Positions 1,831-46,468 of a DNA stretch of 64,000 bases are shown in pieces. The translations under genes and the position numbers were made by a program. The notes below the pieces were generated by a model. That model was not told the origin of the DNA and searched no databases. It worked only from the letters and a program-made list of their open reading frames with translations. Position 1 is the stretch's first letter; every line of letters starts with the position of its first letter. Origin of the DNA: Octopus sinensis (lineage: Eukaryota); assembly GCF_006345805.1 (NCBI RefSeq), contig NC_042999.1:169074001-169138000 (forward strand), in the 5' to 3' direction.

Positions 1831-1890
1831 GTGTTGATTATTTGTGATGTTTTTTCCGAAATCTCATTCAAACATAAAACATTTAAATTT

Positions 1891-2110: not shown

Positions 2111-2173
<63 letters not shown>

Positions 2174-2221
2174 ATATATATGTATATGTGTATATATGAT
2201 ATATGTATATATATATATGTG

Positions 2222-2266
<45 letters not shown>

Positions 2267-2892
2267 ATATGTGTATATATATATATATGTGTATATATAT
2301 ATATATATGTGTATATATATATATATGTGTATATATATATATATATGTGTATATATACGTATATATATGTGTATATATACGTATATATATGTGTATATAT
2401 ACGTATATATATGTGTATATATACGTATATATATGTGTATATATATGTGTATATATACGTATATATATGTGTATATATATGTATATATATGTGTATATGT
2501 ATATATATGCGTATATGTATATATATGCGTATATGTATATATATGCGTATATATATATATGCGTATATATATATATATATGCGTATATATGTGTATATGT
2601 ATGTATATGTGTATGTATATATATGTGTATGTATATATATGTGTATGTATATATATGTGTATGTATATATATGTGTATGTATATATATATGTGTATGTAT
2701 ATATATATGTGTATGTATATATATGTGTATATGTATATATATGTGTATATGTATATATATGTGTATATGTATATATATGTGTGTGTATATATATGTGTAT
2801 ATGTATATATATGTGTGTATATATATGTGTGTATATATATATGTGTGTATATATATATGTGTGTATATATATATGTGTGTATATATATATAT
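1891..2892. repeat. Compound (TA)n/(TG)n microsatellite, ~1 kb
   Basis: Directly visible; sub-blocks such as ATATATACGT and ATGCGT. Confidence 0.98.
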
Positions 2893-3997: not shown

Positions 3998-5182
3998 GTA
4001 TGTGTATATATATATATGTGTATATATATATATATGTGTGTATATATATATATGTGTGTATATATATATGTGTGTGTATATATATATATGTGTGTGTATA
4101 TATATATGTGTGTGTATATATATATATGTGTGTATATATATATGTGTGTATATATATGTGTGTATATATATGTGTATATATATATGTGTGTATATATGTG
4201 TGTATATATATGTGTATGTATATATATGTGTGTATATATATGTGTGTATATATATATATATATGTGTATATATATATGTGTATATATATGTGTGTATATA
4301 TATATGTGTATATATATGTGTGTATATATGTGTGTATATATGTGTATATATACATATGTGTATATATGTGTATATATACATATGTGTATATATAGATATG
4401 TGTATATATGTGTATATATACATATGTATATATATGTGTATATATACATATGTGTATATATGTGTATATATATATGTGTATATATATGTGTATATATATG
4501 TGTATATATATATATGTATATATATGTGTATATATATATATGTGTATATATATGTGTATATATATATATGTATATATATGTGTATATATATATATGTATA
4601 TATATGTGTATATATATGTGTATATATATGTGTATATATATATGTATATATATGTGTATATATATATATATGTATATATATGTGTATATATATGTGTGTA
4701 TATATATGTGTATATATATGTGTGTATATATATGTGTGTATATATATGTGTGTATATATATGTGTGTATATATATGTGTGTATATATATGTGTGTATATA
4801 TATGTGTGTATATATATATGTATATATATATGTGTGTATGTATATGTGTATATATATATGTTATATGTATATGTGTATGTATATGTGTATATATATGTGT
4901 ATATATATATATGTGTGTATATATATATATGTGTGTGTATATATATATATATGTGTGTATATATATATATTTGTGTATATATATATATATGTGTATATAT
5001 ATATATATATATATGTGTATATATATATATATATGTGTATATATATATATATGTGTGTATATATATGTATGTATATATATGTATATATGTGTGTGTATAT
5101 ATATATGTGTGTGTATATATATATGTGTGTGTATGTATATATATGTGTATATATATATGTGTATATATATATGTATATATAT
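3998..5182. repeat. (TA)n/(TG)n microsatellite replacing part of the LINE RT domain
   Basis: Lies between RT segments ...GRSCLT and QIVSGVPQG... Confidence 0.95.
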
Positions 5183-7059
5183 GAGTTAAGCAGCTTCTAC
5201 CTGGTCGGAAACCATGTTGGGTGTCAGGCAGCAAGTCATTTTCTTCAAGGAAGGTGATCAGTTTCCTTCTGACTATTCGTTCTATGACCTTGCTGATATG
5301 TGAGGTCAGAGAGATAGGTCTATAGTTCTTGGCCTCCGCTCTGCTACCTCCTTTATGAATAGGGCATATTTTACCTTCCTTCAGTTTTCTTGGAAGTTTG
5401 CCAGTTGCAAGGAAGCTCTGAACGAGGAACTGCAGTGGTCTTGCTAGGACTCTCTTACATACTTTTTGAAGGATTGCTGAGAATCCATCGAGGCCAGTAG
5501 CTGAGTTTGTTTTCATTTCATGAATAGCCTTTATTACATCGTCTTCCTTTATATTGATGTAATCAATCATCGCTGCCTCCGATTTTATATCTGCAGTGGT
5601 AAAGAAGTCAGTTGGATTACTGACTTGAAAATGCCCAAGGGGTGGCGTGAAAACACTCTTGAATTGCTCATTTAGTATTTAACTTACCCTCATTGGATTT
5701 CCTGTGAGTGTGCCATCCTTTTCATGGAGTGGCTCTATCCTACAGTGCCCCGTAGCTGTTTCTTTGGCATACCTGTAGAAAGCTCTGGGGTTAGATTTTA
5801 TGTTGTCTATAGCCCAGGCTTTGTCTGCTCTTTCCTTTTCATGGGAGAGTTGCAGACATTTTACAATTTCCAACAGTTTTATTTTCAGGCGGGACTTTTC
5901 ACTGCTTTCAATTCGTTTGTTTAGGCGATTTGAAACTTTTGTTCGCCGTCTCATTAGAATTTTCCTCTCTCTGGGGATGTTGCTCTTGTGTACAGTGGCC
6001 TTTCTCTCTGGGACACATTTGTAGCATATGGCTTGCATTACAGACATGAATTGTTGAAGTTTCATGTCAATGTCTGGCGAGGATAGACATTCAGGCCAGT
6101 TTTGTTTGAGGATCTCTTTCTCAATTTGTTTCCAGTTTGCCTTATGGAAGTTCAAGCTGGAAAGATTCTGAGAGTTACTTGTTGGCTGCATGTCCATGCT
6201 TTCCTTTGGTTAGCTCTCCCATGTTGTGATCCGAGAGTAGTGTCAGCGTCAATTTCACATTATGGATGAGATCCATATTATTTGTGAAGCAGAGATCCAG
6301 TATGTTACTTGCCCTGGTTGGTTGGAGTATTACTTGCTCCATGTACAGAGTGTTGATGAGGTTCAGTAGGGACCTCACCTGTCCTCGTTCACATCGTGTC
6401 ATTCCTGGGAGAGAATGGCCCTCGGGCCATCTGACATTGGGTAGATTGAAGTCACCCATAAAAAGTACACTTATGTGTTGTTCTAATGTGACTACAACTT
6501 CTTCTATTTTTATATGGCAGTCTTCAAACTTGCCTACATATCTTGGGGCATCTGGAGAGCGATATGTAGCACATATAACTACACCAAGTTGCCTCATATG
6601 TACAATTAGTGTGTCACACACCGAATTTGAGTATGACAAAAGGACCTGGGGTGTGAGGTCCTCACGGATGTACATAGCAACTCCTCCATGACTCCTTTCT
6701 TTTCTGTCGGTCCGTAGTACAACATACTGCGGTATGTGTATTTCCGTATCTGCTATGTCCGGTTTCAGGTGTGTTTCCGTAAGTGCTATGCATAAGGCTT
6801 GATTGCATGCAACAAAGTCTCTCAAGAACGGGATTTTTGTCCTATTACTGATTGTTAGCAGTCCTCTGAAGTTCTGTAGGAGCATCGAGGTGAGGTGTAT
6901 ACTGTTGCCGGCGGTGCCCACCCTGGGTCTATTTGCTGTGGCGGTCTTGTGTATTGTGGATAGTCCCATCTGCGAGTTTAAGTTTGATGGAGCCAGGTTA
7001 GCTGCTGTACAATCTTTTATGCCATGCACAAAAAAGATTCTTGTTCAGCAGCTGCCCTT

Positions 7060-8092: not shown

Positions 8093-8319
8093 TGGTTATT
8101 ATATTTCCTTGATTTATGAATCGACTGGATGGTCACTACAGGGACGCCTATCATCGTAGGTCTTTTCGATCAAAGTTAACCCGTGCTTAAACTATAATTC
8201 TTTCTATTATAGACACAAAGGTATGACATTTTGGAGGATGTGGGTTACTCGATTACATCGACCCCAGTGCTCGACTGGTACTTAGTTTATTGACTCTTAA
8301 AGGATGATGGCATATAAAA

Positions 8320-8565
8320 TTTCTTTGATATAACCATGGGGTCATCAGACTCTGCACAGGTGACTGACTTAGTTGGCCTATATCTACTCTCGGAAGTTAG
8401 GAAAAGCTTCCCTAATCTTACTGGTGGATTATATAGGGATGATGCCCTCTTTGCCGTGTTGGGCCTCTCTAAGACGGAATTAAACAGATTAAAGAAGTCG
8501 TTGAGAAGTTTTTTGAGGGATTTTTTAAATCTTGATATCATCTTCGACATTAACTCTAGGGTGGT
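8320..8565 (+). mobile_element. Penelope-like RT fragment
   Basis: MGSSDSAQVTDLVGLYLL...GLYRDDAL, homologous to the RT core of the PLE at 60829+ (MGSYDGAGICDLIGLFLL). Confidence 0.8.
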
Positions 8566-8801
8566 ATTGTGCAAAAAAGAATTTGTGCATGAGAAGAGAG
8601 GAGGCTCAACTTTAAACTAACTTATAGCTTGTTTCATGAAGAGTTTAAGTTGGAGTTTAAGATAATTTCCAAGGTCAGTATGGTTTCTCAGAGACATTTT
8701 ATATAAGAATTTATAGAGGAAAAGAATGTGATGTTTACACATTTCTTAAATGTTAGTGAAACAGCTTCTTATGAGAAATGGAAATCACACCACATGCTTA
8801 A

Positions 8802-14372: not shown

Positions 14373-15663
14373 CGAGGGGTGTTCAATAAGTAATGCCCCT
14401 GACCCACTTCCCATAGCAGTAGAGCAACGAAACTTGGCACAGTTATTAGTCTTTTTCTACATAGGAGCCACCTAGAGTTACGCATTTCTCCCGTCGTTTG
14501 ATACAGCTCTGGAGACCGTTTTTGTAGAAGACCCCAGTTTGGTCCTCCAACCACGACGTGACTTCAGAAATCAAGGCTGCATCATCTGGGAAACGCTTTC
14601 CTTTCAAAAACAACTTCGTGGCTGGGAAGAGGTAAAAATCAGAGGGTGCACGGTCAGGAGAGTAGGGGGGTGGGGGAGGAGTTCATAGCCATATGCCTGT
14701 GCTTCTGATCTGGCGACACGCGAGTTGTGGACCGGAGCGTTGTCCTGCAGGAGGAGGATGCCTTTGCTGATCTTGCTCTGCCACTTGATTTTGATAGCTT
14801 CTCTTAATTTCTTCAAAAGTGAAGCATAATAGGCTCCTGTAATTGTGGTACCCTTTGCCAGGAAATCTGTCATCACTACTCTGTCCTGGTCCCAGAAGAC
14901 TGTGAGCATGACCTTGTCAGAGGAGGGCTGCACCCTTGCCTTCTTTGGAGGAGGTGAGTCACGGTGCTTCCACTGCATTGACTGGGCTTTGGTCTCTGGA
15001 TCATAGTGATGGACTCAGGTTTCATCCTGTGTAATCAATCTTCTGAAAAATTTTGACTCATCTTCTTGGCACATCTCCAAATTCATCCTCGAGCACTCGA
15101 CGCGTTCTTGCTTCTGGAAAGGTGTGAGCAACCTGGGAATCCATCTGGCAGACACCTTTTGCATATGCAAATGGTCATGAATGATAGTTTCCACAGACCC
15201 GGTACTAATCTTGACCTCATGGGCTATTTGGTGAATAGTTATGCGTCGATCTTCCAAAATGGCAGCCTCAACTTGACGGACAGATGCCTCATCAATGGCA
15301 GAAGGGGGCGACCAGATCTGGGAGCTGTTTCCACAGAGTTCCGACCATGTTTAAATTCACGATGCCAGTGTTTTACAAGGTCATATGATGGGGCATCATC
15401 ACCATAAGTTACTTTCATTTCATCAAAAGTCTCCCGTGGTGTGCGTCCTTTCAAATACAAAAACTGGATCACTGCTCGACACTCAACTGGCTCCATTTCA
15501 CACTTGACTCTGTTCAAACACCTGTAAATCAGAAACCACAATTAGTTCAGAGCTGTAATTTGCCTCTTAATCTATAGAGATATAAATGATTGCACATGCA
15601 AAATTTCAGCTAGATCAAACAACTGCAAGTGGGTCAGGGGCATTACTTATTGAACGTCCCTCG
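14373..15663 (-). mobile_element. Full-length mariner (Tc1/mariner) transposon, transposase pseudogenised; nested in an RTE fragment (~14120-15880, -)
   Basis: TA|CGAGGGGTGTTCAATAAGTAATGCCCCTGACCCACTT ... AAGTGGGTCAGGGGCATTACTTATTGAACGTCCCTCG|TA; 1291 bp. ORF pieces give HTH, WIPRLL, TQDET, LQDNAPVH. Confidence 0.96.
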
Positions 15664-16789
15664 TATTACCTTCATTCCTCTCCAGTCTACACATGTCTTC
15701 TGCATTCAGAGCCCATGTCTTATCTACTTTCTTGCTAACAACAACTTTAGTCTTTGCTAACTTAACTTTAAGGTCCTTTGATTCCAGGTTTTGTTTCCAA
15801 ACTTGGAACTTCTCCATTTCTGCTTCAGATTCTGCAATAAGAACAAAATCATCAGCATAAAGCAGTTCCCATGGGCTGATGATGAGAGAGAGAGAGAGAG
15901 TGTGTGTGTGTGTGTGTGTGCACTCTCTCTCTCTCTCTCTCTCTCACAGAGTAAGAAGATAAATGAAAGTGGTACCTAACGCATGGGTAGGAGTTATATT
16001 ATTTAATAATAGTTTGATTTGGCTCCATGCATATCATGGGCTCATTAAATAAACCTGTCTCATGAAGCATAGTTAACAGAATGGAGCAAGTTTAAGATAG
16101 CTACTAGAGATTGGGCTGCTATTTGTCAAGGCATGTCACACTGTTGGTATTGATATGGTAGTGACATCAGATGCATATCCCAATCTGTATTTCTAGGCTT
16201 GCGTGCTTGGACAGTATTTTAGTGCCACCTCTCTGTCTGGGAAATGGAATGAGTGTTACTTGCAACACCAGTTTTTTGGTGTGGGTGTACCTGTTGTATA
16301 GGTGTCTAAGTGTGTATCTGTATATGTGTTTGTGTGTATGTGAGTTGATCGTATCAGCTCATCTGGTATGTGTATGCATCTATGTAGGTGTGTAGGGCAG
16401 TATCTGATGTATGTGTGCCTGCATATCTGCATGATTGGGTGTGTGTATATTTACATTTAGTGTGTATGTATATGCATAGCTCTGGTATTTGTGCATACAT
16501 GTACATCTGGTATGTACACATCTGGAACTGGTGTGTGAGTATGTGTGAACTGATGTACTGGTGTGCTGTGCTTGGTACTCTGTGGTAGCAACAGCATCAT
16601 TTGTGGGGAAACCAGAATTGTTCTTGGATTAAAATTTGGTGGAAGACCCTTGTCCAAGATGTTGCACAGTGAGAGAGAACTCAAGACCATGTGGTAACAA
16701 AGTGTACTACATATTCATATAGCCAGGCATCTTGATTTTGCCTGAAGCAATTTATGGTTGTGATTAGCTGTGTATTCTTATATTCTTTT

Positions 16790-16994
16790 TACTCATTTCA
16801 GTCATTTTGACTGGCCATGCTGGAGCATCACCTATTAATTAGTTGAAGAATTCGATCCCTGGACTTGTTCTTTGTAAGCCTGGTACTTTTTCTATTAGCC
16901 TCTTTTACTGAACCGCTAAGTTATGGGGACGTAAACACACCCACATCGGTTGTCAAGTGATGGTAGGAGGACAAACACTGACACAAACACGCAA

Positions 16995-17038
<44 letters not shown>

Positions 17039-17200
17039 CAGGCTTCTTTCAGTTTCCATCTACCATATCCACTCACATAGCTTTGGTTGGCCTGAGGATA
17101 TAGTAGAAGACACTTGCCCAAGGTACCGCACTGTGGGACTGAACCTAGGACCATGTGGTTGGGAAGCAAACTTCTTACCACACAAACATGCCTGCACCTC
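16790..17200 (-). mobile_element. tRNA-derived SINE with internal microsatellite (family S1)
   Basis: Diverged reverse-complement match to 18438-18838. Confidence 0.85.
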
Positions 17201-18437
17201 AGAATATTATAATACAAGTCATTGAAACTGAATAAGTTTGTCATCATAGTGTTTATTGCATACACTGAGGCCAGTTGTTCTATTACATACACAAATTAAA
17301 TGACTATTCACAAAATGTCTTAGTGCTTTCTTTGATATGAGAATTAGGAATTAATTGTTACAGTTTTAAAGCTCAAATACACTTTATGTCACTTGGAGCA
17401 GCACAATCACTTTCTCTCACATTCATAAAAAACATGTTTTCAGTTCTTCCCCCAACTCAAGAAAATTACAGTTTTTTCCTCCTGAATAGTCTTAATTTCT
17501 CCAGGCAATGATTAATTTTTGCCTTTTGTTTATGCTACAAACAAAGGATCCACTAATTCTAAATTGCCTGATTGCTTCTTGATTTCCTGTTTTCTTTAAT
17601 ATTTAAAGCTTTTCTCCAATTGTATAAGAGTAATGATGCTCAAAGCATTCAAACTGGAAATAATACTGTGATTACCTCTATACAAAAGTGACACGTAAAT
17701 TGCAAAGAAAAATAAGCATGTACACTGATTTCTGTATTTTTGTATTGAACCATACATCTTAAAATGCACAAATATGCTTACTAACACTGATAGAAAGTCA
17801 TGGCAGCATGAAAACTATAATTTCATTTTCATTATCCTTTATTTAGTTCTTCTGTAACCTTGAGTGATGATTCAAACCCATTGCCCTCTTCAATGCACGT
17901 TGGCATGACTAATAAATGACAGTTGAAAGGATAAAAGGAGTGCTTGCAACATAGCATTGTAGTTTCACGTCCCATACTGAATGCAATCCATGCTGAGTGT
18001 CAACATCTTATAGTTTCAGTTGTACTGGTAAATTTGAATTTTGGTAGATAACAAATGTTGTTTAACTGGATTTTTCATCCATGCCCAATTATAAAGAAAT
18101 GTTACAAAGAACTTCTTACAAAAGTTCTTACTACTGTTAGTATCTAAAAAAAACTGTAGTCAGCAGAAGTTGTTAAAGAAAAAAGGACTTTATATTCAGA
18201 ACTGTTACAACACACTATACTCACTGTACTAAAATTTTGGTTTTTGTACCTGTTGCTCAAGGCCATGTATAATTATCATCATGGTTCTGGAAGATCATGC
18301 TGTTACACATATAAAAAAGTATGATCATGCTGTTACACATGTAAATACGGTACTTTAGAGATAGGTAGTGTTGAGCAAGTATTGAAAGGTAGTGGATGTT
18401 CTAGATTATTTTATTTAGAACTTTATATTTAAGTATA

Positions 18438-18838
18438 GGCGCAGGAGTGGCTGTGTGGTAAGTAGCTTGCTAACCAACCACATGGTTCCGGGTTCAGTCC
18501 CACTGCGTGGCACCTTGGGCAAGTGTCTTCTGCTATAGCCCCGGGCCGACCAATGCCTTGTGAGTGAATTTGGTAGACGGAAACTGAAAGAAGCCTGTTG
18601 TATATATGTATATATATATATGTATGTGTGTTTGTGTGTCTGTGTTTGTCTCCCTAGCATTGCTTGACAACCGATGCTGGTGTGTGTTTACGTCCCTGTC
18701 ACTTAGCGGTTCGGCAAAAGAGACCGATAGAATAAGTACTGGGCTTACAAAGAATAAGTCCCGGGGTTGATTTGCTCGACTAAAGGTGGTGCTCCAGCAT
18801 GGCCGCAGTCAAATGACTGAAACAAGTAAAAGAGTAAG
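18438..18838 (+). mobile_element. tRNA-derived SINE, full length (family S1; resembles octopus OR-type SINEs)
   Basis: ggcgcaggagtggctgtgtggtaag (A box) ... gggttcagtccc (B-box-like), central (TA/TG)n, 3' ggtgctccagcatggccgcagtcaaatgactgaaac + (AAGAGTA)n. Confidence 0.9.
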
Positions 18839-19824
18839 TAAATTCCATTAGAAACAGTTTCATAGGTCCATGAAAGTGCAGTACATAGATATGTACTGAG
18901 TGAGAAAAATGATACACTTAAATTTCACAAGTTCACAGGTGTGCAAATTAAATTACTGTTTTTGTTTTCAGGCTAAAACCATTTTTTTCTGAAAAGGATT
19001 TTTAGAAATTCTGTTAGCTTCCAGCTTCAAATTTGATTGCGGATGATGGTTTCTCCACCCTTGCTCATTCATTTGATTTGCTGGAAGTAGCAGTCAAATT
19101 TCTTATAAATAATATAATACTTTCTGAAAATAGGAATGATACATTGGAAATAATGAAAAAATTTTGAAACATCCCAAAATCTTACTTCACTGTAATCATA
19201 ACATATAATTAATTATAGTAATCAGGTAATATGAACTTCACTTTTTTTAAAAATATTATTTCTTATCTGGTTTGTAACAAGATTGAATATAATCATTGGT
19301 GATTATAACAGATACAATATACAGAGGATCCAATTAAAAATTAAAACACTCTTCTATCAAGTTGTTGGTCTTCGCCTCTCTTTATCTCCCTGAATACACA
19401 AAATATGGAAGAGGTTATAATGAGCATTTTTGTAACATTCTTTTAAATCTTTAACCTTCAGATTACTTTGTCAAATACAATGCTTATTTATTCACAGTGT
19501 TTTGAATTAACCATGCATTATCTTGTACCATAAGGTTTTGATGTTATTGTTTATTTTTAGAAAGACAAGGATAAGTGGAAAAGGTTGGATCTGGTCAGGT
19601 TGAACGTAAAACAGGCAGACTATTTGGGTCAGATATGACCAGTTTAAATGCTAGAGAGTGAAATGTACTTAGTTATTTTTAGTATCTCACATCAACTCTG
19701 ACACCTTCTTGAAGCAATTAAATGTTTGGTAGTGCCCTATAGGTCATATGCTTTGGAGATATCAAAGTTTAATTTGTTTTTAGGGACCATATTATACATT
19801 CTGCCATGTAATATTTTATTATTA

Positions 19825-20031
19825 CTCTTTTACTCTTTTACAAGTTTCAGTCATTTGACTGTGGCCATGCTGGAGCACCGCCTTTAGTCGAGCAAATCGA
19901 CCCCGGGATTTATTCTTTGTAAGCCCAGTACTTATTCTATCGGTCTCTTTTGTCGAACCGCTAAGTGACGGGGACGTAAACACACCAGCATCGGTTGTCA
20001 AGCAATGCTAGGGGGACAAACACACACACAT

Positions 20032-20072
<41 letters not shown>

Positions 20073-20128
20073 ACAGGCTTCTTTCAGTTTCTGTCTACCA
20101 AATCCACTCACAAGGCATTGGTCGGCCC
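19825..20128 (-). mobile_element. S1 SINE, 5'-truncated
   Basis: Reverse complement of the 3' two-thirds of 18438-18838; ends ~140 bp upstream of the exon acceptor. Confidence 0.88.
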
Positions 20129-20220: not shown

Positions 20221-20478
<258 letters not shown>

Positions 20479-24210: not shown

Positions 24211-25189
24211 AAGCAACATATATATAAACACTCATACACAAACACATATGTGCATGCACATTTCTGTTTTCAAGGAGAACATGTTGTATGTCATGTGGTT
24301 TGTCAGAGAAGTAAAATATATATGTTAACCATCAAACCAGTAACCATTTCAACCATTTAAAAAAAATTCTTCCTTGTTTGGCATTTAGCATTGAAGATTT
24401 ACACACAATACCTGTTTGTAAACTAAAAATTGTTTTATAAGAAATTTTCTTTGTTTTCTGTGATACTGGGAGTTTTTATTTATGTTTTATTGTTTATCAG
24501 AGTTTATTTTTCTTTCATTTTATTTACTGTTTGGAATATCAAAAACAAAATTACTAAAATAAAATGAATTTTTGAAATTTTCTCTTACCTTTTAGTAAAG
24601 TTTGTTCTTTGATATGATTCCTTATAAACACAAAAGAAAGAAGTATTTTTAGTTATGTTTTGTTCTACAGTAATCTGTTCCCTTTTTGTATGTGCAACAT
24701 CTGCTTTAGCAGTTAATGAAAAATATTTAGATTCATAGCACCATCTTACAAACACTACTATGTAAATATGAATAGAAAATGATAAATTTTATTAGTTTAT
24801 TTCAGAGTAGTGGCTGGCAGAAGAGCAAGATAGAGAACAAAATATTTTGCAGTATTTACTTCTGTCATAATATGCCTTAAATCCAAATTCTTCTAAGGAT
24901 TGAAATTATATTTCATTCTCTTAAAAAATACGTCCATTTAAATCTCCTTGACTCCATAGTTTTCCTAAAAAATGTGTGGCTTTGTGCCAAAGGTAGAAAT
25001 CAATTTTTTATTAGGTAGTGTAGCAGGGATATTGTAGCAACAACACTAATATGTTGGATTACCTTGTCTTCCTATTCCTAAATCAACAGTCCTCTTTATC
25101 CCTTTGGGTCTGATAAAGTAATGCAGGTCTCATACTGATTTGCTTTGATAAGTGGTATCAGGCTACAATATATATATATATATGTATAT

Positions 25190-25400
25190 TCTTTTATTAT
25201 TTTACTTGTTTCAGTCATTTGACTGCAGCCATGCTGGAGCACTACCTTTAGTTGAACAAACTGATCCCAGGATTTATTCTTTGTAAGCCTAGTACTTATT
25301 CTATCAGTCTCATTTGCCAAACCGCGAAGTTATGGGGATAAACACACCAAGATCGGTTGTCAAGCGACAGTGGGGTGACAAACATACACACACACACACA
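25190..25400 (-). mobile_element. S1 SINE 3' half
   Basis: ttttacttgtttcagtcatttgactgcagccatgctggagc... Confidence 0.8.
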
Positions 25401-25570
25401 AATGTATACATATGCATTTTTATAATTATTAGCTGGACCTGTGAAAAATTCATGGAAAACAAAGAAATATGCAAGCATTTGTAAATTGTGTGCTGGTGCT
25501 ATGCGAAATGTTTCTATATTTTGACAGTTACAGAATATAGAAAGAAGTGTAAAACTGATTACTAAAATTC

Positions 25571-25666
25571 TTTTACTTTTGACATATGTTTCGAAGACAA
25601 CATTGGTTTTATTCCAAAGGAATAAACAGTGTAAAATGCAATCTTCTCATCAGGAAAGAAAGAGAG
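25571..25666 (-). ncRNA. Minimal type-I hammerhead ribozyme (intact CUGAUGA core)
   Basis: - strand: cuuuc-CUGAUGA-GAAGA...UCUUC-GAAA-C-AUAU-G-UC|aaaag; palindromic ACAUAUGU stem III; predicted cut between 25581 and 25580. Confidence 0.8.
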
Positions 25667-25904
25667 CCTATCTCAACAGCAACACATTATAACAATTACG
25701 ATTGACTGCATAAATGATAAACAGAACGTTAAGTATTTTAAGAAAACCGTGAGTAGATTCGACGTCAAAGGCAGATACTAGAAAGAGGAGTATCTGACTT
25801 TGATGTCGAATCTACTAACGGTTTTTTAAAAATACTTAATAGTGTTCTGTTTATCATTTATGCAGTCATCGTAATTGTTATAATGTCTTGTTGTTGAGAT
25901 AGGC

Positions 25905-26000
25905 TCTCTTTCTTTCTTGATGAGAAGATTGCATTTTACACCATTTATTCCTTTGGAATAAAACCAATGTTGTCTTCGAAACATATGTCGAAAGTAAAAG
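25905..26000 (+). ncRNA. Minimal type-I hammerhead ribozyme with C3U core change
   Basis: cuuuc-UUGAUGA(25917-25923)-GAAGA...UCUUC-GAAA-C-AUAU-G-UC|gaaag; site after 25989. Confidence 0.72.
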
Positions 26001-26197
26001 AATTTTAATAACATCTACGTTCAACTCCATTTATTTACTTATATATATATGTAGATGTATATCTATATACATATATTTCTTTGTATACATCATCATCATC
26101 ATCATCATTTAACGTCCGCTTTCCATGCTAGCATGGGTTGGACGGTTCAACTGGAGTCTGGGGAGCCCGAAGGCTGCACCAGGCCAGTCATGTATAT

Positions 26198-26832: not shown

Positions 26833-26881
26833 ATTCTATATATAAATATGTATATATAATGTATATATACAAAGTGTATAT

Positions 26882-27058
26882 ACTCTTTTACTTGTTTCAG
26901 TCATTTGACTGCGGCCATGCTGGAGCACTGCCTTTAATCGAGCATCTCGACCCCAGGACTTATTCTTTTGTAAGCCCAGTACTTATTCTATCGGTCTCTT
27001 TTGCCGAACCGCTAAGTAACGGGGACATAAACACACCAGCATCGGTTGTCAAGCAATG
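26882..27058 (-). mobile_element. S1 SINE 3' half, fused to LINE RT fragment
   Basis: SINE sequence stops at ...gtcaagcaatgc and joins LINE sequence directly. Confidence 0.85.
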
Positions 27059-28100
27059 CCGTGGATTTTTTATTGTGTGGTGACCATAGTTGGGAGCAAT
27101 AGTCTAAGCAGCTGAGAACGTATGTCCCCCAAAGGATCATCAATGTCTTCTTTTCTCCTGGTTTGAAAGTTCGGAGGATCCATCCAGCCTGCCATCTGCA
27201 TGTTATTACCAAATTGGTAATATGTACTTGGAAAGCTGCATCATTGTTCATGTCAATGCCCAGGTCACACACTGATTTTGATTCAGGGATTGCAATTCCT
27301 CCTGGGTTTGTGTATCCTGTCAGCATGTCATTCAGCTTTGTGTGCTGGTAGCATAGGGCCTGAAATTTTCCTGCATTAAACTGCATATTGTTGTCCTGAG
27401 CCCACCTGTATATTGTGTCCAACTCCCGTTGCAGAAGTGCAATATTTCCAGGATTTTGTATTGTCGGGAGGGACTTTTCTGTCTTCTGCACAGCTAGCAA
27501 GCATGGCTATCTGAGCAGCCAAGGGCATATCTGAGAGGGCCACTATGAACAGCAGTGGTCCCAAGACAGTGCCATGTGGAACACCACTTGCTATTTGTGT
27601 TTCCTTGGAGGTGGCTCCATTGGTTACTACTTCCTGATGTCTATTCTTAAGAAAGTTGTGCAGCCATTCTCACAGTTTTCCACATACACTGAGATCGTGC
27701 GGTTTGTGACATATCATACTATGGTCAACTTTATCAAAGGCATTTGCAAAGTCGAGATATATCACATGCATGCTTGAGTCATTCAGCAACTGTTTTAACA
27801 TCCAATCGTAGTGTTGCAGGAGCTGTGTCAGACAGCTTCTGCTGGAGGAAATCTATGCTGGGTGTCAGTAAGTCATTTTCTTCTAGGAACATGATTAGTT
27901 TCTTGCAGACTATTCCTTCCATAACTTTACTGATGTGTGAGGTCAGAGAGATAGGCCTGTAATTTTTAGCATCTGCTCTACTTCCTCCCTTATGGATAGG
28001 GCATATTATCTCTTCCTTCAGTTTGTCTGGGAGTTTACCACTTGCAAGAAAGCTCTGGAAGAGAAGCTGCAGTGGTTTTGTAACAGCTTGCTTGCATTCT
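27059..28100 (-). mobile_element. CR1/L2-group LINE RT fragment related to 2893-8190
   Basis: [54 protein letters not shown]. Confidence 0.9.
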
Positions 28101-29845: not shown

Positions 29846-30164
29846 TATTTTCAATTCATTTAGTGCTTTCTACTTAGGGCTGCATAGCAAAGTAGCCACT
29901 TCTCTCAAGATTTATTTACTGTTTTTTTACAGCATAGTGGACATTGCTTTGTGAAAGATGCTCTCTGATTTTGGAAATGTATTCCTAGGAAAAAAGTCCT
30001 ATCCATGTGATTAGGTAATGTTCAGCAGGCATGAGCTAAATGCTTGTCATCAGAGAAAATTGGTGTGTAAACCAGCAGAGTTCTCATGTTGGTTGTTAAG
30101 TGAAATCACTAGACAATGGCTATCTATGTGGTGCTTTGCTGCTAGGTATTATTTTAGTACACAT

Positions 30165-30578
30165 AGGTGCAGGAATGGCTGTGTGGTAAGTAGCTTGCTA
30201 ACCAACCACATGGTTCCGGGTTCAGTCCCACTGCGTGGCATCTTGGGCAAGTGTCTTCTGCTATAGCCCCGGGCCGACCAATGCCTTGTGAGTGGATTTG
30301 GTAGACGGAAACTGAAAGAAGCCCGTCGTATATATGTGTATATATATATGTGTGTGTATGTGTTTGTGTGTCTGTGTTTGTCCCCCTAGCATTGCTTGAC
30401 AACCGATGCTGGTGTGTTTACGTCCCGTCACTTAGCGGTTCGGCAAAAGAGAGACCGATAGAATAAGTACTGGGCTTACAAAGAATAAGTCCCGGGGTCG
30501 ATTTGCTCGACTAAAGGTGGTGCTCCAGCATGGCCGCAGTCAATGACTGAAACAAGTAAAAGAGAGTAAAGAGAGAGT
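30165..30578 (+). mobile_element. S1 SINE, full length
   Basis: Near-identical to 18438-18838. Confidence 0.9.
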
Positions 30579-32469
30579 ATCACTATGCTCTTCACTTCAA
30601 CTCCTTTCTGATTATTCCTGTGATTGTACCACATCCAGCACTGCTGACCAGCTATTCACATCTGACTCCAACTGTGCCAACCACTCTGTTGTTTTCTGGA
30701 AATCACAACAACTTCTTAGCTAGTATCAAGGAAAATGCATGGTAATTTTCAAGCTACTTTTCTTACTAAAAGTGCATTTTCCATGCCAGAAAATACAGCA
30801 ATTATATTTCTTTATTTCATTTTTGTTTCTGTTTCTAATTTTGTTTCTGTTTCACCAGTATGCCTGCTTTCCCAACAGATGTTTGTATTGTTTGGAATTC
30901 TTAAACTAGTGTTGTCTTAGCTGATTTTGTTGTTGATATTTACCTGCAAATTAATTCACAATATTCTTAAACATTGAAACATCTTTTGTTTGCAGTTTAC
31001 TGTCCTTTTTGATCAGGATTTTGTATTCTATTGTAGTTGCATGCTTTAGACCAGTTACTTAATTTCATTTGATTCACTTTACATAGTCAGATAAAGAAGT
31101 CTTTTCATCCATTTATTTGCAGTCACATGTCAAGAAACTATAACTAAGCTCAAAGAATTAGAAAACATTTGCCTTTTTATTTTACCTAGCATCTAGTCTA
31201 TCTTGTTCAAAGAAAGCTAATATACATGTATTACTGTTGAAGGGAAAATTAGACAAAAATACAAGGATTTCCCCTCCCGCTTTGAGGATTTAAATATTGT
31301 TGAAAGTTATATGGATTTATTTCCTTAATATATTAGTTGCTTGTTCATTAATAGATCAACATAGTGTATTGTTAGTCATACCACTAATCAAGTAGCTGGG
31401 TTTTAAAACTAGCTGCTCGTTATGAAAGTGTTTTGGTTATATTTATGAAACTTGATAGGACTTCTCTGAAAATAGCGAGAACTGCACTACAATATAGGTT
31501 ACAAAGTGTATGCGAAGCAAGCAACCTTTTCCTTGTATTCCTAATCTATCTGTTTATGTGTACCCACAATCACTCATGAATGTGCACATACAAATACACA
31601 CTACATATCCAAGCATATATTGTGTAACACTATATCTGCAATATGCTATGGCAGTAATTTTTCAAGTGTGTCTAAATTGAGCATCACTATCTATCTGGGA
31701 ATCTCTAAAATTCTTAATGTATCTTGTAAGTATCATATTGTCTGCAGGAACAGTTCTTCATTCTGAGAAACTTTTTTTTTTTTGCTAGTCTTATATTTAT
31801 AATTTTTCTCTCCAATTAATGAATTTACCATATGGTGTTCTCAAGTTATTTCATTTCTTAAGTTACCTGGAGAACTCCATATGTGTTAAAAAATTTTCCA
31901 TTTTTGTTCCCCACCTCATTTCAATATTTCTTTGAGAGTAGGGTTAGAATTAGTAAATTATTGATTGGTCTATTAATCTCCTCTAGTGTTTTTCAGTTTA
32001 TATTTATTTATATGACATTTTTGAGTTGATAGAATCTCAAATTTGAGTGTCATTTTCTTGTGACATTAATATGGATGAAAGAAATAAAAATGAGCAGGCA
32101 TTTCAAACATGTACTTTAAAAACTAGAATTTACCTCATAGCATTGAAAGTAGCCATATTTGGCCCAAATATTCTACCTGTTTTATGTTCAAACTGGCCAT
32201 ATCCAGTCTCTCACACCTAGCATACAATGTCATTCTAAAAATATCCACATTGAAATTTTTAAGCTACAAGATAATGCATGATTAAGTCAAAACAATCTGA
32301 ATTAATATGATTACATTTGATAGAGTAATCTGAATGTTTAAAGCGTTAAAGTATTTTGCCAATCGAAGTTTTTAAATAAAAAGTCTATAAATTCATTTTA
32401 GTGATAAAGTAATATTACTTGGTCATAAGATTTTAATTAACTGGCCAAAATAATTTTGATTTTTAAATT

Positions 32470-36195: not shown

Positions 36196-39100
36196 TACTT
36201 AGAGCGTGCTGGACAGTTTCACTGTCCTACCTGCATCTTGGACATGTCGGTGGCACTGCCATACCGTGCCTAGATAACTTACCGCAAACAGGTAAAGCAT
36301 TCCTGTAACACTGCCAAGCTAGGGATTTTTGGAAATTATCCAAATACTCCGGCTTGAAGGATTTTCGGAACAGGTTGGTAAGTTGGTTCTCATCGAACCC
36401 CAGAGCCCTTCCTAAGACATTTTTTCCTTCTACCAGCCCTCTATAGAATACTGAGGTGGTATTCCCACAGCCAGCCTTGCCTGTCTTGTGGATTAGCTAG
36501 AGTTCGTGACAGAGCACCTCACAAGTGGCTTTCCCCCTCTCCACAAAAAGCGGAATAGGAGTCATTCCAGCTTGCTTAGCCAAGAATCAGGGTAAGGCAC
36601 AACAGACAGGCAGTAGGTGATTACAGATGCTATAAACACCTACACCACCTCCACTCTACCCTTCAAGGACAGAGACCTTCTGGACCACTTCCGTACTATG
36701 GTCTCTGCCTTATCCAGTACCTCGCTCCAATTCTTCTCCACCTGGAAGTATGAACCAAACCAAACTCCAGGCAACTTAATAGGACCATCTGTCAAGTGTC
36801 TGACGACACTGGACGATATCGGCTTGTTCCTCCAGGTGCCGAGGCGCAAACCGATGGACTTGTCCTTGTTAACCTTTGATCCTGCCACCGCTTCGTATCC
36901 TCGGAGAGTATCTTCTATACGAGGTGGTTGTGCTTCGTTAGTTGTACTTCTGCATAAGCAGAAGTGAACTTATCACATCCAATCTCATTAGGGTTGCCAC
37001 CTAACTTCTCCAGCCCCCGCAGCAATGGCTCCAGGGCCAAAACATACAGAATTGGAGACAAGGGACACCCTTCACGAATGGACCGACTAATCAAAAGTGG
37101 CTTTGTTAGGTAACTGTTTATCTGGAAGGTGGACTTGATGCCGCTATACATAGTGGAGATCCACCCATGAAAGCCAGGGCTCAGCTCAGCTGCCTCGAGG
37201 GCAGCCCCCAATTACTGGTGGCCTACTCTATTGAATGTTTTACTTTGGTCTAAATGAACCAATGCCCCTCCTTTGCCGGCTATTTTCCCTACCCTATCGA
37301 AGGTGTAGCGGAGAAGGTGAAGATTGTCCTGGATCAACCTGCCTGGGATTGCACAAATCTGTGCCTTCCCAACAAATTTCTCCATGACAGCCATCAACCT
37401 TTTAGCTAACACCTTGGCCAAAATCTTTAACTCTACTTTAAATAAAGTTATGGGCCGATAGTTACTTATGCTACCCGCCTTGCTCGGGTCTTTCTGGACC
37501 AGCGTCACTACTCCCCAGCTTACAGAGCTGGGAATTCTCCCATTCTGCTGCCAGTTTGCATAGATACCAGCCAAGTTCGGCATTAATTGGTAAAACTCAT
37601 AGGGCCGACCATCCAGTCCTGGAGACTTTTCCCCAGCGCACTCAGCCAGTACCTCTCTTACCTCCACGGTAGTGATTGGGCCTCCACAGCATTCAGCATC
37701 ACGTGTTGAGAGCCGAGGCCTGCCAGCTAGGAACTCCTTTAAGCCCCCGGCACTCAAGCTGGCCGCTCTCCCAGAACAACCGAGCTAAATGCCTTTTGCA
37801 TCTCTTTCTGTCCATAGATCCTGCATCCCTGCTTGTCGGTTAAAGACTTAATACAGGACTTTTTGCCCTTCTGACTCTCCACTTGACGTGCCCATCTGGG
37901 TACGTTAATACCCTCTTGTTTCCCAGCGCGTAACTTAGCTCTAACTCGGCACCCTTCATGTTTGGCATTGAGGTGACGGTACAAGACCGTTCTCGCTGCT
38001 AACATTCCAGGTGCAGAGCCAGATTGCATTGCCTCATCTAGGTTCTTCCCTAAGTCAATCTCTATTTTAGTCCTATCTAAACTTAGCTGCTTGCTAAATC
38101 TAATTGACTCAAAATGGATGGCTCTCTTGAGGACTTGCCACCATCTATTATTAATGATGGTGCCACATAATGCCCTCTGAACTAACTCCTTAATCCGGGT
38201 ACGGAAAGCTTCACAAGCCAAAATAGACTTGTTCATTTTCCAATACCTGGGTCCCTGTCTATAACACTTATCTACCTGTACCTCACACGTCACAAGTTTG
38301 TGATCTGTGTAAGGCACAATGCAAAATTGTGAACAGCTAAGACTATGTTCATCTCATTCCATAACAAATATTCTTTCCATATACGGTCTGCATGAACTGT
38401 CCTTATTACTCCACGTCCACTGTGGAACGCTGGCTCATCCACTACTAGATTAAAGTTCTCTAGTAGACCCTTGAGGCAAGGATTCCCTTTCCTATTGGGG
38501 CCTACACTATCGACGCACGCATCAAGGATAGTGTTGAAGTTCCTTAACAAAACTACCATTTTCGACGTCAATAAAAAGTACTCCAGGTTCCGAAAAAGCC
38601 CGACTGCCCATGCTCGTTAGGAGCATAGACAGCTACCAACCTGAAGGACTGCTTACTTTCGTATGTTACATCCAGGACAACCAGCCTATCTTCTGGGTCC
38701 AGAAAGATGGTACTTATCTGTAAGTTCAAGTTCTTCCTGATAAGGATTGCCACGCCTGCACCTCCCCTCTGGCTCGGAGAAATAAATTTCTCGTAACCAT
38801 TGAGGAGGAGCGAGAATGCTTCAGGTCCCTTCATCTTGGACTCGGTCACAACAGCCACAGTTATTCAATGTGCAATGAGGTCGTCCTCGAAAACAAGTCT
38901 GTTTCCATCTTGACCCCATTCCATGCACATTCAAACACCCCAACTTAATCATCGAAGAAGAAGAAAGGAGTTACTTACGGTTGCGAGAGGGAGCATGGCC
39001 CTTTGCCTGCTTCCCTCATGCTCCTCGTTTCTGCTTGGCTCTGGGTTGGGGTGACTGCCGGGCTGATTATAAATTTGCCCATACACACATCACTAGTAAC

Positions 39101-40900
39101 GTCTATTATTAATTTGTCTTTGTTCCTGCAACAGTCTATCCCTCCAGTCCCCCCTCGCCCACCTTTGCATAGCGGTACTGAGCGTCTGTATTACTTTTAA
39201 AAAAATTTATGCGTGGGTGGGCTTGGATAAAGTTAGTAACTTTTTCATTTTTTGTGTTCACTGCCACTATACGGTCAGTTTTTTCCAGACCCTTCAATGC
39301 AGGGGGATGTGGAATGTTGAATTTTTGTCCAACAAACATTTTACCGGGAGGGTGGGATTGGGAGATTTTTTATGTTCTTCTGTCTGTAAATTTGTTTTCT
39401 TTTTTTGTTTGGGGAGGGGAATCAGGTGTGTTTTGTTTTTTTCTCTTATTTGTGACTGTTGTAAATTCCATCTCCTTGGGTTCATTTCCTTTTCTCTGTT
39501 GTTCTTTCCTCTCTTATTTTTTCCTTTCCTTGTTTTATTTCCTCCTGTTGTTTCTCGTCAATTCTTTTTTTCTCTTTTGTCGAATTGAGATTTTTATTTC
39601 CTTCATCCACGTTCGAAGGAGGGGTGCTACTCGCGTTGGTGTTTATTTTATTTTCTACACAGTCCGAGCGAACGTGACCCTTTTGTCCACACTTGAAACA
39701 TCTGGGCCAACGTCCCTCTACTGAAACATGAATGGTGTGCCCCTCCCCCACAAACACCCTATTAGGCAAACCTTCCAGTGTATTATTCTCCGCTTGAACC
39801 ACCATCTCCAGCATTTGCCCACGCCAATTACGTGCCTCTTTCTTCCTCATGCTCAGAATATTTATTTTCTCTTCTGTGTCAAAAATGACAGCTGCTGCTA
39901 CCCACATCATGTCGTATCCAACCAGTATATCTTCTACCGTCACTCGCTCTGTTCGTCGTCCCATGTAAGTGGGCAGCAACATTATTGATTCGTTTTTCAA
40001 GGTTTCCATTGAAACCTCTTTTGCCACACCAGCCGAGTCAAAATGAACTTCAATGGTTTCACTTCTTGTACCCCAACTAACGTGGCAAATTTTTGGCCAT
40101 ATTGGTGCCAAACATCTTTCCACAATGTCATTTTTCACCTCTGCAATTTTCTTTTCTTTAATGTTGTACACCTTGTATACAACAATTTTCTCCTTTATAG
40201 TGTTAATAGTTTCCACAATATACCTATCAGGAGTAACAAAACACAATAGACTTTCCTCAAAACATAATAGACTTCATCATGGATATAGAGACTGCAATAT
40301 AAATCACTTAATATTCAGACAAAAATATAACTTCATTGGAAGAAACAAAAATCTCTTTATCTCAATGTAGCAGCACTCCAAATCAGGAATACCTGTCATC
40401 AAAGCACACTAGAAATAAATATAAGGACAACTTCAGACAAGATTGACCACAACCATGAACCTATAATAGACCAAGTTTTTACAGAAGGCCAAATAACAAC
40501 ATAGTTAACCAATACAGGAATCATTTTTACTTTTGATACAGTGGATAGAATTCAAGATATGCAATTGACAAAACAATTCTAAAATTCCAAAGGTAATCAA
40601 TCAATCACACAAAAGCCTCTCAACTCCACAAATGTAAATTCCAAAATTCACCCCAACACAACAAAATTCCAAAATGAAGTAAAAACTATTTAGTTACTGA
40701 ATGGCCTAATTACTGGTACTTAGCACAGACTTCTCAGTACTAAATCCATCAGCAAGGGGTTAAGAAAGATAAACCAAAATTAAATACCCTATAACAAAAT
40801 AATAGAATGAGAAAACAGTGCATTCAACTCAACTAAACAACTAGAAGCAACAAATATAAAGAAAGCAAATCAAAAGTTGAGGTAACAGGTTTACTCAGGA
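36196..40900 (-). mobile_element. Tx1/L1-clade LINE (ORF1 with CCHC knuckle 39482-40246; APE-RT-zinc finger ORF2 ~36200-38950, many stops)
   Basis: CFKCGQKGHVRSDC; LVAVYAPN, TDHKLV, WKMNKSIL; KSPGLDGRPYEFY, NYRPITL, LDQSKTFNRV, REGCPLSPILY; C-terminal CPRC..ETVQHA. Confidence 0.92.
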
Positions 40901-42106
40901 ATAGAAACCCTAACTTCAAACCACTTCGTAATTACATTTTTCCTACACTATTTGCTGACCAAGTTAGATTGTGATTTTATGTCAATATCAAGCTTTTAGG
41001 AAAAAAGTAAAACTCAAGTGATGCTATTAAACATTTGACCAGAAAAACAAGTGACATCTTCAGGGAGTTAGCCAATAGGAATACCATCAGACAAAAACAA
41101 GTGACCATAATGGATGATAAACAAGTTCCCAAGTTGTCAATCAACCAGAATTCTGGACTACTCTCAATCTGGCAAGTGATCAGAATGTATGATGAATAAA
41201 TGATGTTCCCAGGATGTTAGGCCTCATGTGAACAAAACAAGTGATGTATATAAGTAGCCAATCAGGACATGAACCAATGTCTTTGCCTCACTCAACATAG
41301 TAGAGCTTGTAAAAAAGTTTTTTTCTTATTCTTTAAAATCTTGAATCTTCATCTTATTTCTTGAAGGATTTAGTTGAACAAATTGACCCCATTTTAAGCA
41401 TGGTACTTATTCTTTTGGCTTCTTTTGAAGAACTGCTAAGTTACCTTGATGTAAACAAATCAAGACTGGTTGTCAAATGGTGAGACAGACAAACACACAC
41501 GCATGCACACAGACACACACACACACACACACAGATACAGACACACACACACACAGGGCTTTTTTCAGTTTCCATCAACCAAATCCATTGACATCACTTT
41601 TGTCATATAATTTTGCTATGAAACCTATTGAACATTTAATTTTTGAATATGTTTTATCACGATAAAACATTTTCCTTCTGTATTTAGAAATTTTCATCTC
41701 ATATATTTATGAACAGACTAGCTGAATTACCTGGCATTGCCTGGGTTACTGCTGTTCTTATTCAGATTAAGAAGATATATTTTTTTCCTCATAATTATTT
41801 TAAAATATCCAAATTGTAATGATAATTAGAATTCAGAACTGAAAAATCTTTCCATCTTGAAGTACCTCAGGGTAAACAATATTCATTGTGTAATATTTTC
41901 TTGGTGTCCAAATGAATAAATTGTTGCTACTTCCAGATCATGAGCAACCATCATAGAGAAGCAAAGGAGAAGCATAAGGTAGAGAGATGAAGTCCAACAA
42001 TCTTGAGGGATTGATTCTGAGATTTGTTAATTGAAATACTGAAACTTAGTTTGACTGGAAACTGAAGTGTCTTAAATTCAAATGGAACATCTATAGAAAG
42101 ATATGT

Positions 42107-42531
42107 TACTCTCTTTTCTCTTTTACTCTTTTACTTGTTTCAGTCATTTGACTGCGGCCATGCTGGAGCACCGCCTTCAGTCGAGCAAATCGACCCCGGG
42201 ACTTATTCTTTGTAAGCCCAGTACTTATTCTATCGGTCTCTTTTGCCGAACCGCTAAGTGACGGGACGTAAACACACCAGCATTGGTTGTCAAGCAATGC
42301 TAGGGGGACAAACACAGACACACAAACATATACACACACATACATACATATATATATACATATATACGACAGGCTTCTTTCAGTTTCCGTCTACCAAATC
42401 CACTCACAAGGCTTTGGTCGGCCCGAGGCTATAGCAGAAGACACTTGCCCAAGATGCCACACAGTGGAACTGAACCCAGAACCATGTGGTTGGTAGGCAA
42501 GCTACTTACCACACAGCCACTCCTGCGCCTA
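42107..42531 (-). mobile_element. S1 SINE, full length
   Basis: Reverse complement of 18438-18838 with (TTTTACTC)n tail on +. Confidence 0.9.
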
Positions 42532-43804
42532 TGTATTGTTGTATTGTTTTAATCTAAATGAAAATAAAAATTCCATGTTGACACTTGCAGAGTCTAATAC
42601 TATTACCTTATTTGAGAATGCATAAGGAACAGACAGACATACAAATAGACAAAAAAATTTATGTAGAGAGAGACAAGCACACACTCAGGTAGGATATAAA
42701 TTGCACCCTCAATATTGATGTATTGTTCAAGTAAATGAGTTTTTCACTAGCTTACTTTTTGGAGGAGATTTGGTTTTGGGCCCTCACAAATATTTTTGTT
42801 TCCTATAAGGGATAGGTTTGCAATTGAAATAGTTTTTTTTGTAGTTGAAAAATGTGTTAGACCAGACACAAAAATGTAATCTCACCCATCTCCCTCCATC
42901 CCTGTTCTGCATACGCTTGAGCATATATAACAGCTTCCCTTCATTTCATACACATTTAATTGTTAATTAACACATATTACAAAGATAGTTTTATATTCTC
43001 CTCTTCAAATGAAATATAGAATATTTGTTTTCATATCGTCTATTCTCTCTTGACTGGATGCCAAGAGCATAAAAAAATCTATTTTGGCCTTCAACTTTTA
43101 ACTCTCTTTATATTTCTCCCTCTCACCTCTCTTTCCGTACAACACTTGTTCACTATATTGATGTAATATCTTTTATTTGTTTATTTATTTGTAATTTTCT
43201 GATAATAAACATTTTCACTTTTGAATTATCTGAATATTATCTCTCAGAAATGATTTTAAAAACTTCCCCTCCCCCCTATATTTTCCCAAGATAGCAGATC
43301 TTTGAAAATGTGGGGAGCAAGAAAAAAAAACAAAACAATTATCTTAATTTTTAAATTCTTGTGATTAAATGTTTGCACTAGCCTAATAGAATATCATCAT
43401 CATCATCATTTAATGTCCACCTTCTATGTGGACATGAGTAGGACAGTTTGACAGAGAACCAGCAAGCTTTAGGGCTGTGTCGAGTTTCAATGTTGTCATT
43501 GGTGTGGTTTCTATGGCTGGATGCACTTCCTAATGCCAACTACTTTACAGAGTGTACTGGGTAATTTTTTTGTGCCACCAGCACTAGTGACGTTACCCTG
43601 TAACTTACAAGACAGATAAGAAGAGAAAAATGAAAAGGAAAAAGCTCCCACCGCTAAGAGGAACTATTAGGGAGGAGGGAAAATAGAGGTGGGTGGCTGC
43701 ATGCCAAGTATTGAAAGGCTAAAGTATGATAGAGGTACAAGCACAGGTGTCTTACTATAGAGGAGATACATGGCTGAAGGAGATAAGATGACGGTTGTGA
43801 TCTG

Positions 43805-45651: not shown

Positions 45652-46078
45652 TATTTACCATTATTGCTTGTATGACAGATAAATCAACAGAGAGACACTT
45701 CATGATATATATCTCTGATAGAAATTAAGAGTTATATACCATTAATATTTATAAGCTAGGTTGATTGCTGGATTGATACAGAGATAGCTAGCTAACTAGA
45801 TAGAAAGGTGATGTTATTTATTACTATCATTAAAGGCTATTCGATTCTGATGGAATATTTGGTGGGTAGGCGTCTGTGAGGGACTGAAGGAGATGTAAAG
45901 CAATGATGTCACATTAGACCAGCAACAACAAACTGACAATGAAGTAAACTAGCTTAACTTAGTTAAAAAGTTTTAAATTCCTGCCAAGGATTACATGAAA
46001 GAGGTATGGAATGTGCACGTGAAATAACTTAGATCAATGCATGAGTTTTAGTTGCCATAGATAACCAAAATACCACGT

Positions 46079-46468
46079 AGGCGCAGGAGTGGTTGTGTGG
46101 TAAGTAGCTTGCTTACCAACCACATGGTTCCGGGTTCAGTCCCACTGCGTGGCATCTTGGGCAAGTGCCTTCTGCTATAGCCCCGGGCCGACCAATGCCT
46201 TGTGACGGAAACTGAAAGAAGCCTGTCGTATATGTATATATATGTATATATATATGTATGTGTGTTTGTATGTCTGTGTTTGTCTCCCTAGCATTGCTTG
46301 ACAACCGATGCTGGTGTGTTTACGTCCCCGTCACTTAGTGGTTCGGCAAAAGAGACCGATAGAATAAGTACTGGGCTTACAAAGAATAAGTCCCGGGGTC
46401 GATTTGCTCGACTAAAGGTGGTGCTCCAGCATGGCCGCAGTCAAATGACTGAAACAAGTAAAAGAGTA
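46079..46468 (+). mobile_element. S1 SINE, full length
   Basis: Matches 18438-18838. Confidence 0.9.

Follow-up and report, generated by a model that had tools for sequence, protein, structure and literature searches.

A palindrome of two hammerhead-bearing repeat ends in an intron of octopus scribble, probably the stump of a Penelope-like element insertion

We analysed a window of 64,000 nucleotides (64 kb) from the genome of Octopus sinensis. The only host gene confirmed in it is scribble, represented by a single plus-strand exon of 118 nt (20269–20386) that encodes codons 55–93 of ~1,900 and was identified by protein identity (98% with the proteins of Octopus sinensis and Argonauta hians). 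Searches with two full-length proteins (P0016 and P0040) gave no further scribble exon in the 64-kb window. Both introns beside the exon leave the window and measure at least 20 kb and at least 43.6 kb. Because the window holds no other scribble exon, the intron of at least 43.6 kb, assembly permitting, contains a palindrome that begins 5.2 kb downstream of the exon. Possible minus-strand exons around 24.6 and 25.1 kb were discarded, since a single candidate (24589–24757), and a weak one, came out of the scan.

The window also holds relics of several transposable elements. A decayed Hydra-type Penelope-like element (PLE) occupies 60830–62860 (+), where fragments of a reverse transcriptase and then of a C-terminal endonuclease follow one another in several frames and end at (TA)n. 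Its 3′ region carries a decayed hammerhead-like motif (62697–62759) with a 6-bp stem I, two core changes, and a Hydra-type stem III; a relaxed scan for this motif, written after the motif had been seen, gave one match in 15 shuffled windows. A second Hydra-type PLE reverse transcriptase fragment was found by eye at 8318–8620 (+). Pfam and NCBIfam recognised neither PLE-like fragment, and both were identified by eye against Hydra-1_Obim, which the longer one closely resembles. A relic with a reverse transcriptase (Pfam RVT_1), an endonuclease-like part, and an upstream ORF, located with Pfam and the ORF list, lies at 36600–40300 (−) and is presumably LINE-like, and two relics from the ORF list (14604–15541 and 48191–48622) we take to be Mariner-like transposases. 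Very long TA-rich microsatellites lie at 1830–5190 and 58780–60820, the first of which splits a reverse transcriptase frame, presumably of LINE type, that resumes on both sides. A SINE-like repeat of ~400 bp (78–95% identity) occurs in both orientations at 16776–17199, 18435–18842, 19822–20128, 25187–25424, 26881–27059, 30161–30582, 42104–42534, and 46074–46469; inverted pairs of it in one intron would yield dsRNA, as would the palindrome.

The palindrome comprises arms at 25559–25779 and 25789–26011, of which 207 of 224 aligned columns are identical, with 13 mismatches and four gap columns (13 substitutions against two indels). The fold-back energy of the region was −323 kcal/mol, compared with a mean of −94 for shuffled sequences, and none of the 100 shuffles equalled it, so the palindrome with ~220-bp arms reported in a preliminary description of this DNA is real. 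If the arms were identical at birth, each would have changed by ~3% since then. Within the 64-kb window there is no third copy of the arm. The preliminary description had called the element ORF-less, and neither arm has a consistent ORF.

Contigs of four public sequencing runs were aligned to 621 bases of the locus (25430–26050) and numbered 2,721, 2,637, 1,183, and 269, counts that include the repeat in the left flank; the 269 come from run X10, which is only guessed to be RNA. Part of the stretch was present in 20 of the 24 runs listed, under four organism labels. Of the sampled words, half were present in the best run and a fraction of 0.20–0.23 in eleven runs that are guessed to be RNA. 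The arm is thus a very abundant repeat. Motifs of the family had no matches in metagenome contigs, prokaryote genomes, or viral contigs.

These contigs were used with the arm alignment to place the boundaries of the two repeat copies. The left copy, which is pseudo-LTR-like, lies at 25565–25787 (−), with its 5′ end at 25787 and no tail, as placed by the arm alignment and by loose contig ends at 25564 and 25787. Its outer limit is uncertain between 25559 and 25565 because a few bases of the flank look like the element. The right copy lies at 25789–26040 (+), with its 5′ end at 25789 and a tail included. The centre of the palindrome (25780–25788) had been described as a 9-nt loop. Comparison with contigs showed that eight of these nine bases, 25780–25787, are element sequence, being the longer 5′ end of the left copy, and in a contig that joins 25787 to 25946 the family letters carry on past 25787. 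Base 25788 does differ from the family and is either untemplated or a substitution beside a 2-nt overlap. Upstream of the arm, the family sequence is a long, splice-acceptor-like pyrimidine run ending in AG, which adjoins the 5′ ends of both copies (25780–25790); no spliced form was seen. A retained intron is known in some PLE terminal repeats.

The outer ends of the two copies are unequal. The right arm had been thought to abut (TA)n at 26011, but ~29 more bases of the repeat lie between that position and the (TA)n. These belong to a tail of ~29–35 nt (26006–26040, +), family sequence present on the right copy only, as indicated by contig depth, variants, and loose ends. Family depth reaches ~26040, with a depth in run X1 of 185,637 over 26018–26038 against 203,107 over 25997–26017. 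Family variants occur inside the tail at 26014 and 26017, and left-oriented contigs run past 25564 into the same tail sequence. The right copy is therefore ~30 nt longer than the left at its outer end and reaches the (TA)n, which with a TA-rich, low-complexity flank spans 26040–26075 and is the likely target. The left flank (25460–25564) belongs to a different abundant repeat, whose depth in X1 rises to 68,836 and which is interrupted at a TA-rich site where the left copy starts. Behind 25564, loose ends with a common continuing sequence were found in 17, 23, and 9 contigs of X1, X4, and X7, respectively; the continuation of this repeat is absent from the 64-kb window. The longest match between the two ends of the insertion is 5 nt, the right flank being of low complexity, and target-site duplication is optional in PLEs.

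Each arm carries one hammerhead motif. Run on both strands of the 64-kb window, a type I hammerhead descriptor gave exactly two matches, one per arm; 40 dinucleotide shuffles gave 0.1 matches per window, and 0.0 when stem III was required to be short and stem II to have 5 bp or more. Hammerhead positions are numbered according to the standard scheme. The motif of the right copy (25912–25994, +; descriptor match 25917–25989) has a 5-bp stem I (25912–25916 paired with 25990–25994), the core UUGAUGA (25917–25923), in which C3 is changed to U, a stem II region of 54 nt (25924–25977), GAAA at 25978–25981, and the sequence ACAUAUGU (25981–25988), and its predicted cut lies after 25989. The motif ends ~45 nt before the right end of the right copy. 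In the left copy (25576–25658, −; descriptor match 25653–25581) the core is CUGAUGA (25653–25647), GAAA lies at 25592–25589, and the cut is predicted between 25581 and 25580, where the base at 25580 breaks the first stem-I pair (C.A). The two motifs and their different lesions thus agree with the preliminary description, as does the long stem II with an inner hairpin, which is the predicted fold of both copies. Also borne out is the palindromic sequence at stem III, ACAUAUGU being a perfect 8-nt palindrome. The term "minimal" does not fit: stem III has 2 bp with a 4-nt loop and stem II spans 54 nt, unlike the loop-less minimal hammerhead described in PMC4209133. The right-copy flanks 25890–25900 and 26002–26012 are predicted to lengthen stem I by 11 bp, which is not the case for the left copy. 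Rfam at E values up to 10 returned 19 matches, none of them a hammerhead and all below gathering scores.

The two lesions overlie an intact family norm, as had been proposed. In the four runs, C accounts for 92, 97, 92, and 100% of the depth at position 25917, so the intact CUGAUGA core is the norm of the family, and because most family sequence has CUGAUGA, the UUGAUGA of the right copy is its own decay. At the first stem-I pair the norm is probably G, judging from the lack of any change at 25990 among the 40 of 61 variant rows listed, where the depth is mostly right-arm. Among the same 40 rows, three stem-I variants were found, of which two give G.U pairs and one is a mismatch that breaks the outer pair; those of stem II are confined to loops and the ends of helices, no compensatory (double) stem change was found, and, given a density of about one variant per ten bases, their absence from the core is not significant. 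Of the 13 inter-arm substitutions, two fall in the 34 structurally critical positions (2.0 expected), and the lesions of the hammerheads accumulate at a neutral rate. Since C3 pairs with G8, and C3G and G8C changes abolish cleavage (PMC11167929), the C3U change would be expected to do likewise; we found no measurement of C3U cleavage in the literature. Both ribozymes are presumed to be inactive today. The motifs lie on opposite strands and are never both in one transcript, and therefore could not dimerise in cis.

We next consider how the family is distributed around the ribozyme. Summed depth, which does not equal copy number, was 6-fold (X1) and 22-fold (X4) higher immediately past the ribozyme than at the 5′ end, and its peak sits over the ribozyme. 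5′ truncation would give such a pattern of falling depth. Loose contig ends before 25791 and 25793 and behind 26043 show the family going on with other sequence, and 13 contigs of X1 share one non-TA sequence beyond 26043, so longer forms of the element exist. No reverse transcriptase or GIY-YIG gene linked to the repeat was found among the contig pieces listed, which are short.

Head-to-head joints between antisense and sense copies recur elsewhere. Of 21 joints, 15 are listed, and ten of these lead from antisense into sense sequence; four more in a second joint listing bring the number to 14. Four "opposite strands" joints, which are switches between the two arms, and one joint inside the right arm, a deletion, were excluded from this count. 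All 14 breakpoint pairs differ, each occurs in a single contig, and 2–32 letters lie between the copies where this is known. Offsets range from −87 to +165 nt, against 8 nt at the centre of the palindrome in the window, whose own junction is repeated by none of the 14. X1 by itself supplied five junctions, which rules out alleles of a single locus unless that sample was pooled. Head-to-head joining is thus a habit of the repeat family. Half of the 28 junction ends lie in 42 nt (25875–25916, at stem I and immediately upstream of it; scan-statistic P = 0.0025 for uniform ends), although the sample is small, holds the best-supported joints only, and may count the same locus twice. This cluster overlaps the 5′ strand of the 11-bp stem I extension. 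Of the 28 ends, just one comes within 3 nt of the predicted cut site, which is spanned by both copies in the window, so the RNA that served as template had either not been cleaved or been re-ligated. In the joints listed (15 of 21), the 3′ end of the element is nowhere linked to its 5′ start.

This architecture is of a kind already known from PLEs. Their insertions are described with an inverted, 5′-truncated copy adjacent at the 5′ end and a tail of 30–40 bp, often at one end only (PMC8557442). In Adineta the pseudo-LTRs (pLTRs) measure 193–218 bp and are most frequently arranged head to head, and one inverted pLTR carries a 31-bp tail (PMC3846280). PLE fragments of Schistosoma contain paired hammerheads on opposite strands 100–700 bp apart, and variants with a small palindromic helix III occur in several animals (PMC4209133). 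On AT-rich DNA, a purified PLE protein that is predicted to form a dimer cleaves both strands and extends both; it initiates at two positions of the RNA, one at each end of the tail, and can do without cleavage by the hammerhead (PMC11167929). At the octopus locus we found a type I hammerhead near the 3′ end of the terminal repeat, an inverted, 5′-truncated, head-to-head copy with breakpoints that vary between the window and the 14 other junctions, a 29–35-nt tail on one copy, (TA)n at 26040, and a TA-rich left site. The earlier suggestion of a PLE-derived origin with an inverted 5′ repeat is upheld by this geometry, the tail, the TA target, and the junctions, all as in published PLEs. Endonuclease-bearing PLE insertions, as described in PMC3846280 and PMC8557442, share with the locus an end of ~220–250 bp, head-to-head copies, a 30–40-nt tail on one copy, a TA-rich target, and a 3′ hammerhead. 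The locus differs from them in that two ends stand alone, with no ORF between or beside them and no target-site duplication seen.

The hammerheads of Schistosoma mansoni pairs and of other PLEs resemble those of the arms in being type I, in having a 5-bp stem I and a G10.1-C11.1 closing pair, in a palindromic helix III able to pair two molecules, and in the spacing of opposite-strand motifs a few hundred bases apart (PMC4209133). They differ in stem II, which has 7–8 bp in that description and is a 54-nt region with an inner hairpin in the octopus; the octopus motif also lacks an unpaired base between positions 9 and 10.1. A stem II of 54 nt exceeds that of every animal PLE hammerhead listed in File S2 of PMC8557442, where the one precedent for a long stem II is the spike-moss PLE-X1; in eight Naiads of the same source the half-cores are 35–50 nt apart. 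We found no description of the present hammerhead in our literature searches. Hydra-clade PLEs, including Hydra-1_Obim, and octopus Naiads share with the locus the host group, (TA)n targets, and inverted truncated copies (PMC8557442). The Hydra clade has canonical 3′ hammerheads and Naiads are reported without them (PMC8557442). The hammerhead and 3′ sequence of the arm differ from both, as seen by eye against the 3′ ends of Naiad_Obim and Naiad_Ovul and the hammerhead of Hydra-1_oBim. Nine arm and flank motifs had no matches in the supplement of Craig et al. (PMC8557442), in which line breaks could hide some. In O. vulgaris, 190 families of PLEs make up 6.83% of the genome (PMC13282606), and for this reason the present family may already be catalogued in Repbase, Dfam, or the PMC13282606 library. 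What is unusual is the 54-nt stem II, missed by Rfam, and the clustering of 5′ ends just upstream of the ribozyme.

Because a truncated 5′ end, an inverted copy, a one-sided tail, and a TA target are all published marks of PLEs, the palindrome is best explained as two back-to-back hammerhead-bearing repeat ends that probably represent a stump PLE insertion, its mirror half built during insertion and since decayed. The decayed Hydra-type PLE with its own hammerhead-like motif in the same window is in line with this reading; the similarity of the arm to the 3′ region of that relic is not significant, with 80 of 294 background windows scoring as high. We infer a PLE parent and two-strand priming, by the following route. 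The RT-GIY-YIG protein of the element would nick both strands at a TA-rich site, and reverse transcription would be primed from each strand on uncleaved element RNA. One cDNA would begin at the tail end and the other ~30 nt further in, both would halt at a point ~130 nt beyond the ribozyme on its 5′ side, and a head-to-head joining of their 5′ ends would follow, after which the mirror half would decay. Self-priming on an antisense template, as proposed in PMC3846280, is a possible alternative to two-strand priming.

The source could also have been a non-autonomous, ORF-less derivative of a PLE end, either pLTR-only or retrozyme-like, that borrowed PLE enzymes and took the same insertion route. 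No ORF is linked to the repeat among the contig pieces listed, and both the depth peak over the ribozyme and the gathering of 14 of 28 junction ends in 42 nt fit a short template. It has been argued that animal retrozymes derive from PLEs and are non-autonomous (10.64898/2026.07.22.740005), and there are known non-autonomous PLEs that carry pLTRs (PMC8557442). The family's share of words in the eleven runs guessed to be RNA and the 269 contigs of X10 point the same way, although the RNA status of X10 is itself a guess. Non-LTR animal retrozymes are likewise short, ORF-less, and AT-rich, with a type I hammerhead, a 2-bp stem III, and a 4-nt loop (PMC7229834; 10.64898/2026.07.22.740005). However, they are arranged in head-to-tail tandem, whereas the locus has a head-to-head pair and its family a tail and variable truncation at the 5′ end. 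The retrozyme-like reading of the preliminary description is not supported if retrozyme is meant as in the literature, since head-to-tail tandem units are absent and the two copies in the window are inverted; the joints listed hold no 3′-to-5′ connection either. The family also runs past both arm ends with other sequence, as a longer element would. We consider an ORF-less source rather unlikely, though it deserves to be taken seriously, and an origin by either a PLE insertion or such a derivative is, taken jointly, very probable.

That the host keeps the hairpin as a functional dsRNA, a substrate for editing or small RNAs in the scribble intron, is improbable. The locus is intronic and, by inference, transcribed in sense, and the fold predicted for it contains 222 pairs, including unbroken helices of 64 and 54 bp. 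Against this, the arms have drifted by 13 substitutions and two indels with no signal of constraint, only half of the sampled words occur in the best run, and none of the contig pieces listed extends across the locus. Counts of A>G and T>C places (9 and 6) were equal in X10 and in the DNA run X1, in contigs that are family-wide and not locus-specific and with X10 only guessed to be RNA, and therefore weigh neither for nor against editing.

The earlier view that the palindrome lies in host pre-mRNA, where a dsRNA of ~220 bp would sequester the ribozyme, is sound as a prediction: in scribble pre-mRNA the sense motif would be the right (C3U) copy only, transcribed after its complement, and it is predicted to be fully paired in the dsRNA, the stem probability of the motif being 0.0 in full context against 0.89 for stem II alone. 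Most likely the locus is a decayed insertion without function.

Two further explanations have next to no standing. Near-symmetric arms and a centre offset of just 8 nt might suggest that the palindrome is itself mobile, a MITE-like or fold-back unit copied whole, as the preliminary description had inferred, but the 14 other junctions with different breakpoints, none matching that of the window, and the asymmetry of the outer ends caused by the tail largely refute it. A fold-back read or assembly artefact is just as hard to credit: none of the 32 pieces listed (6,888 in all) bridges the centre or spans the stretch, but most of the differences between the arms are substitutions, each arm departs from the family majority at positions of its own (25628, 25683, and 25742 in the left copy; 25843, 25917, and 25943 in the right), and the tail asymmetry and the other junctions fit PLE biology.

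The locus is a clean example of the inverted-end-plus-tail structure of PLEs, the origin of which is unexplained, and it points to an abundant cephalopod family with a long-stem-II hammerhead missed by a standard Rfam scan. More tentatively, a very abundant PLE-type family of octopuses, with a 54-nt-stem-II hammerhead that evades Rfam and short-spacer descriptors, may scatter hammerhead mini-palindromes with 5′ ends concentrated just upstream of the ribozyme. In that case, its insertions would be a large natural record of how inverted copies are built, by two-strand priming and from two start sites that bound the tail. Cephalopods edit their RNA heavily from A to I, and such a family would be an unrecognised source of long intronic dsRNA in these animals. 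A genome-wide set of junctions could tell two-strand priming from self-priming, and would gauge how much intronic dsRNA is offered to ADAR.
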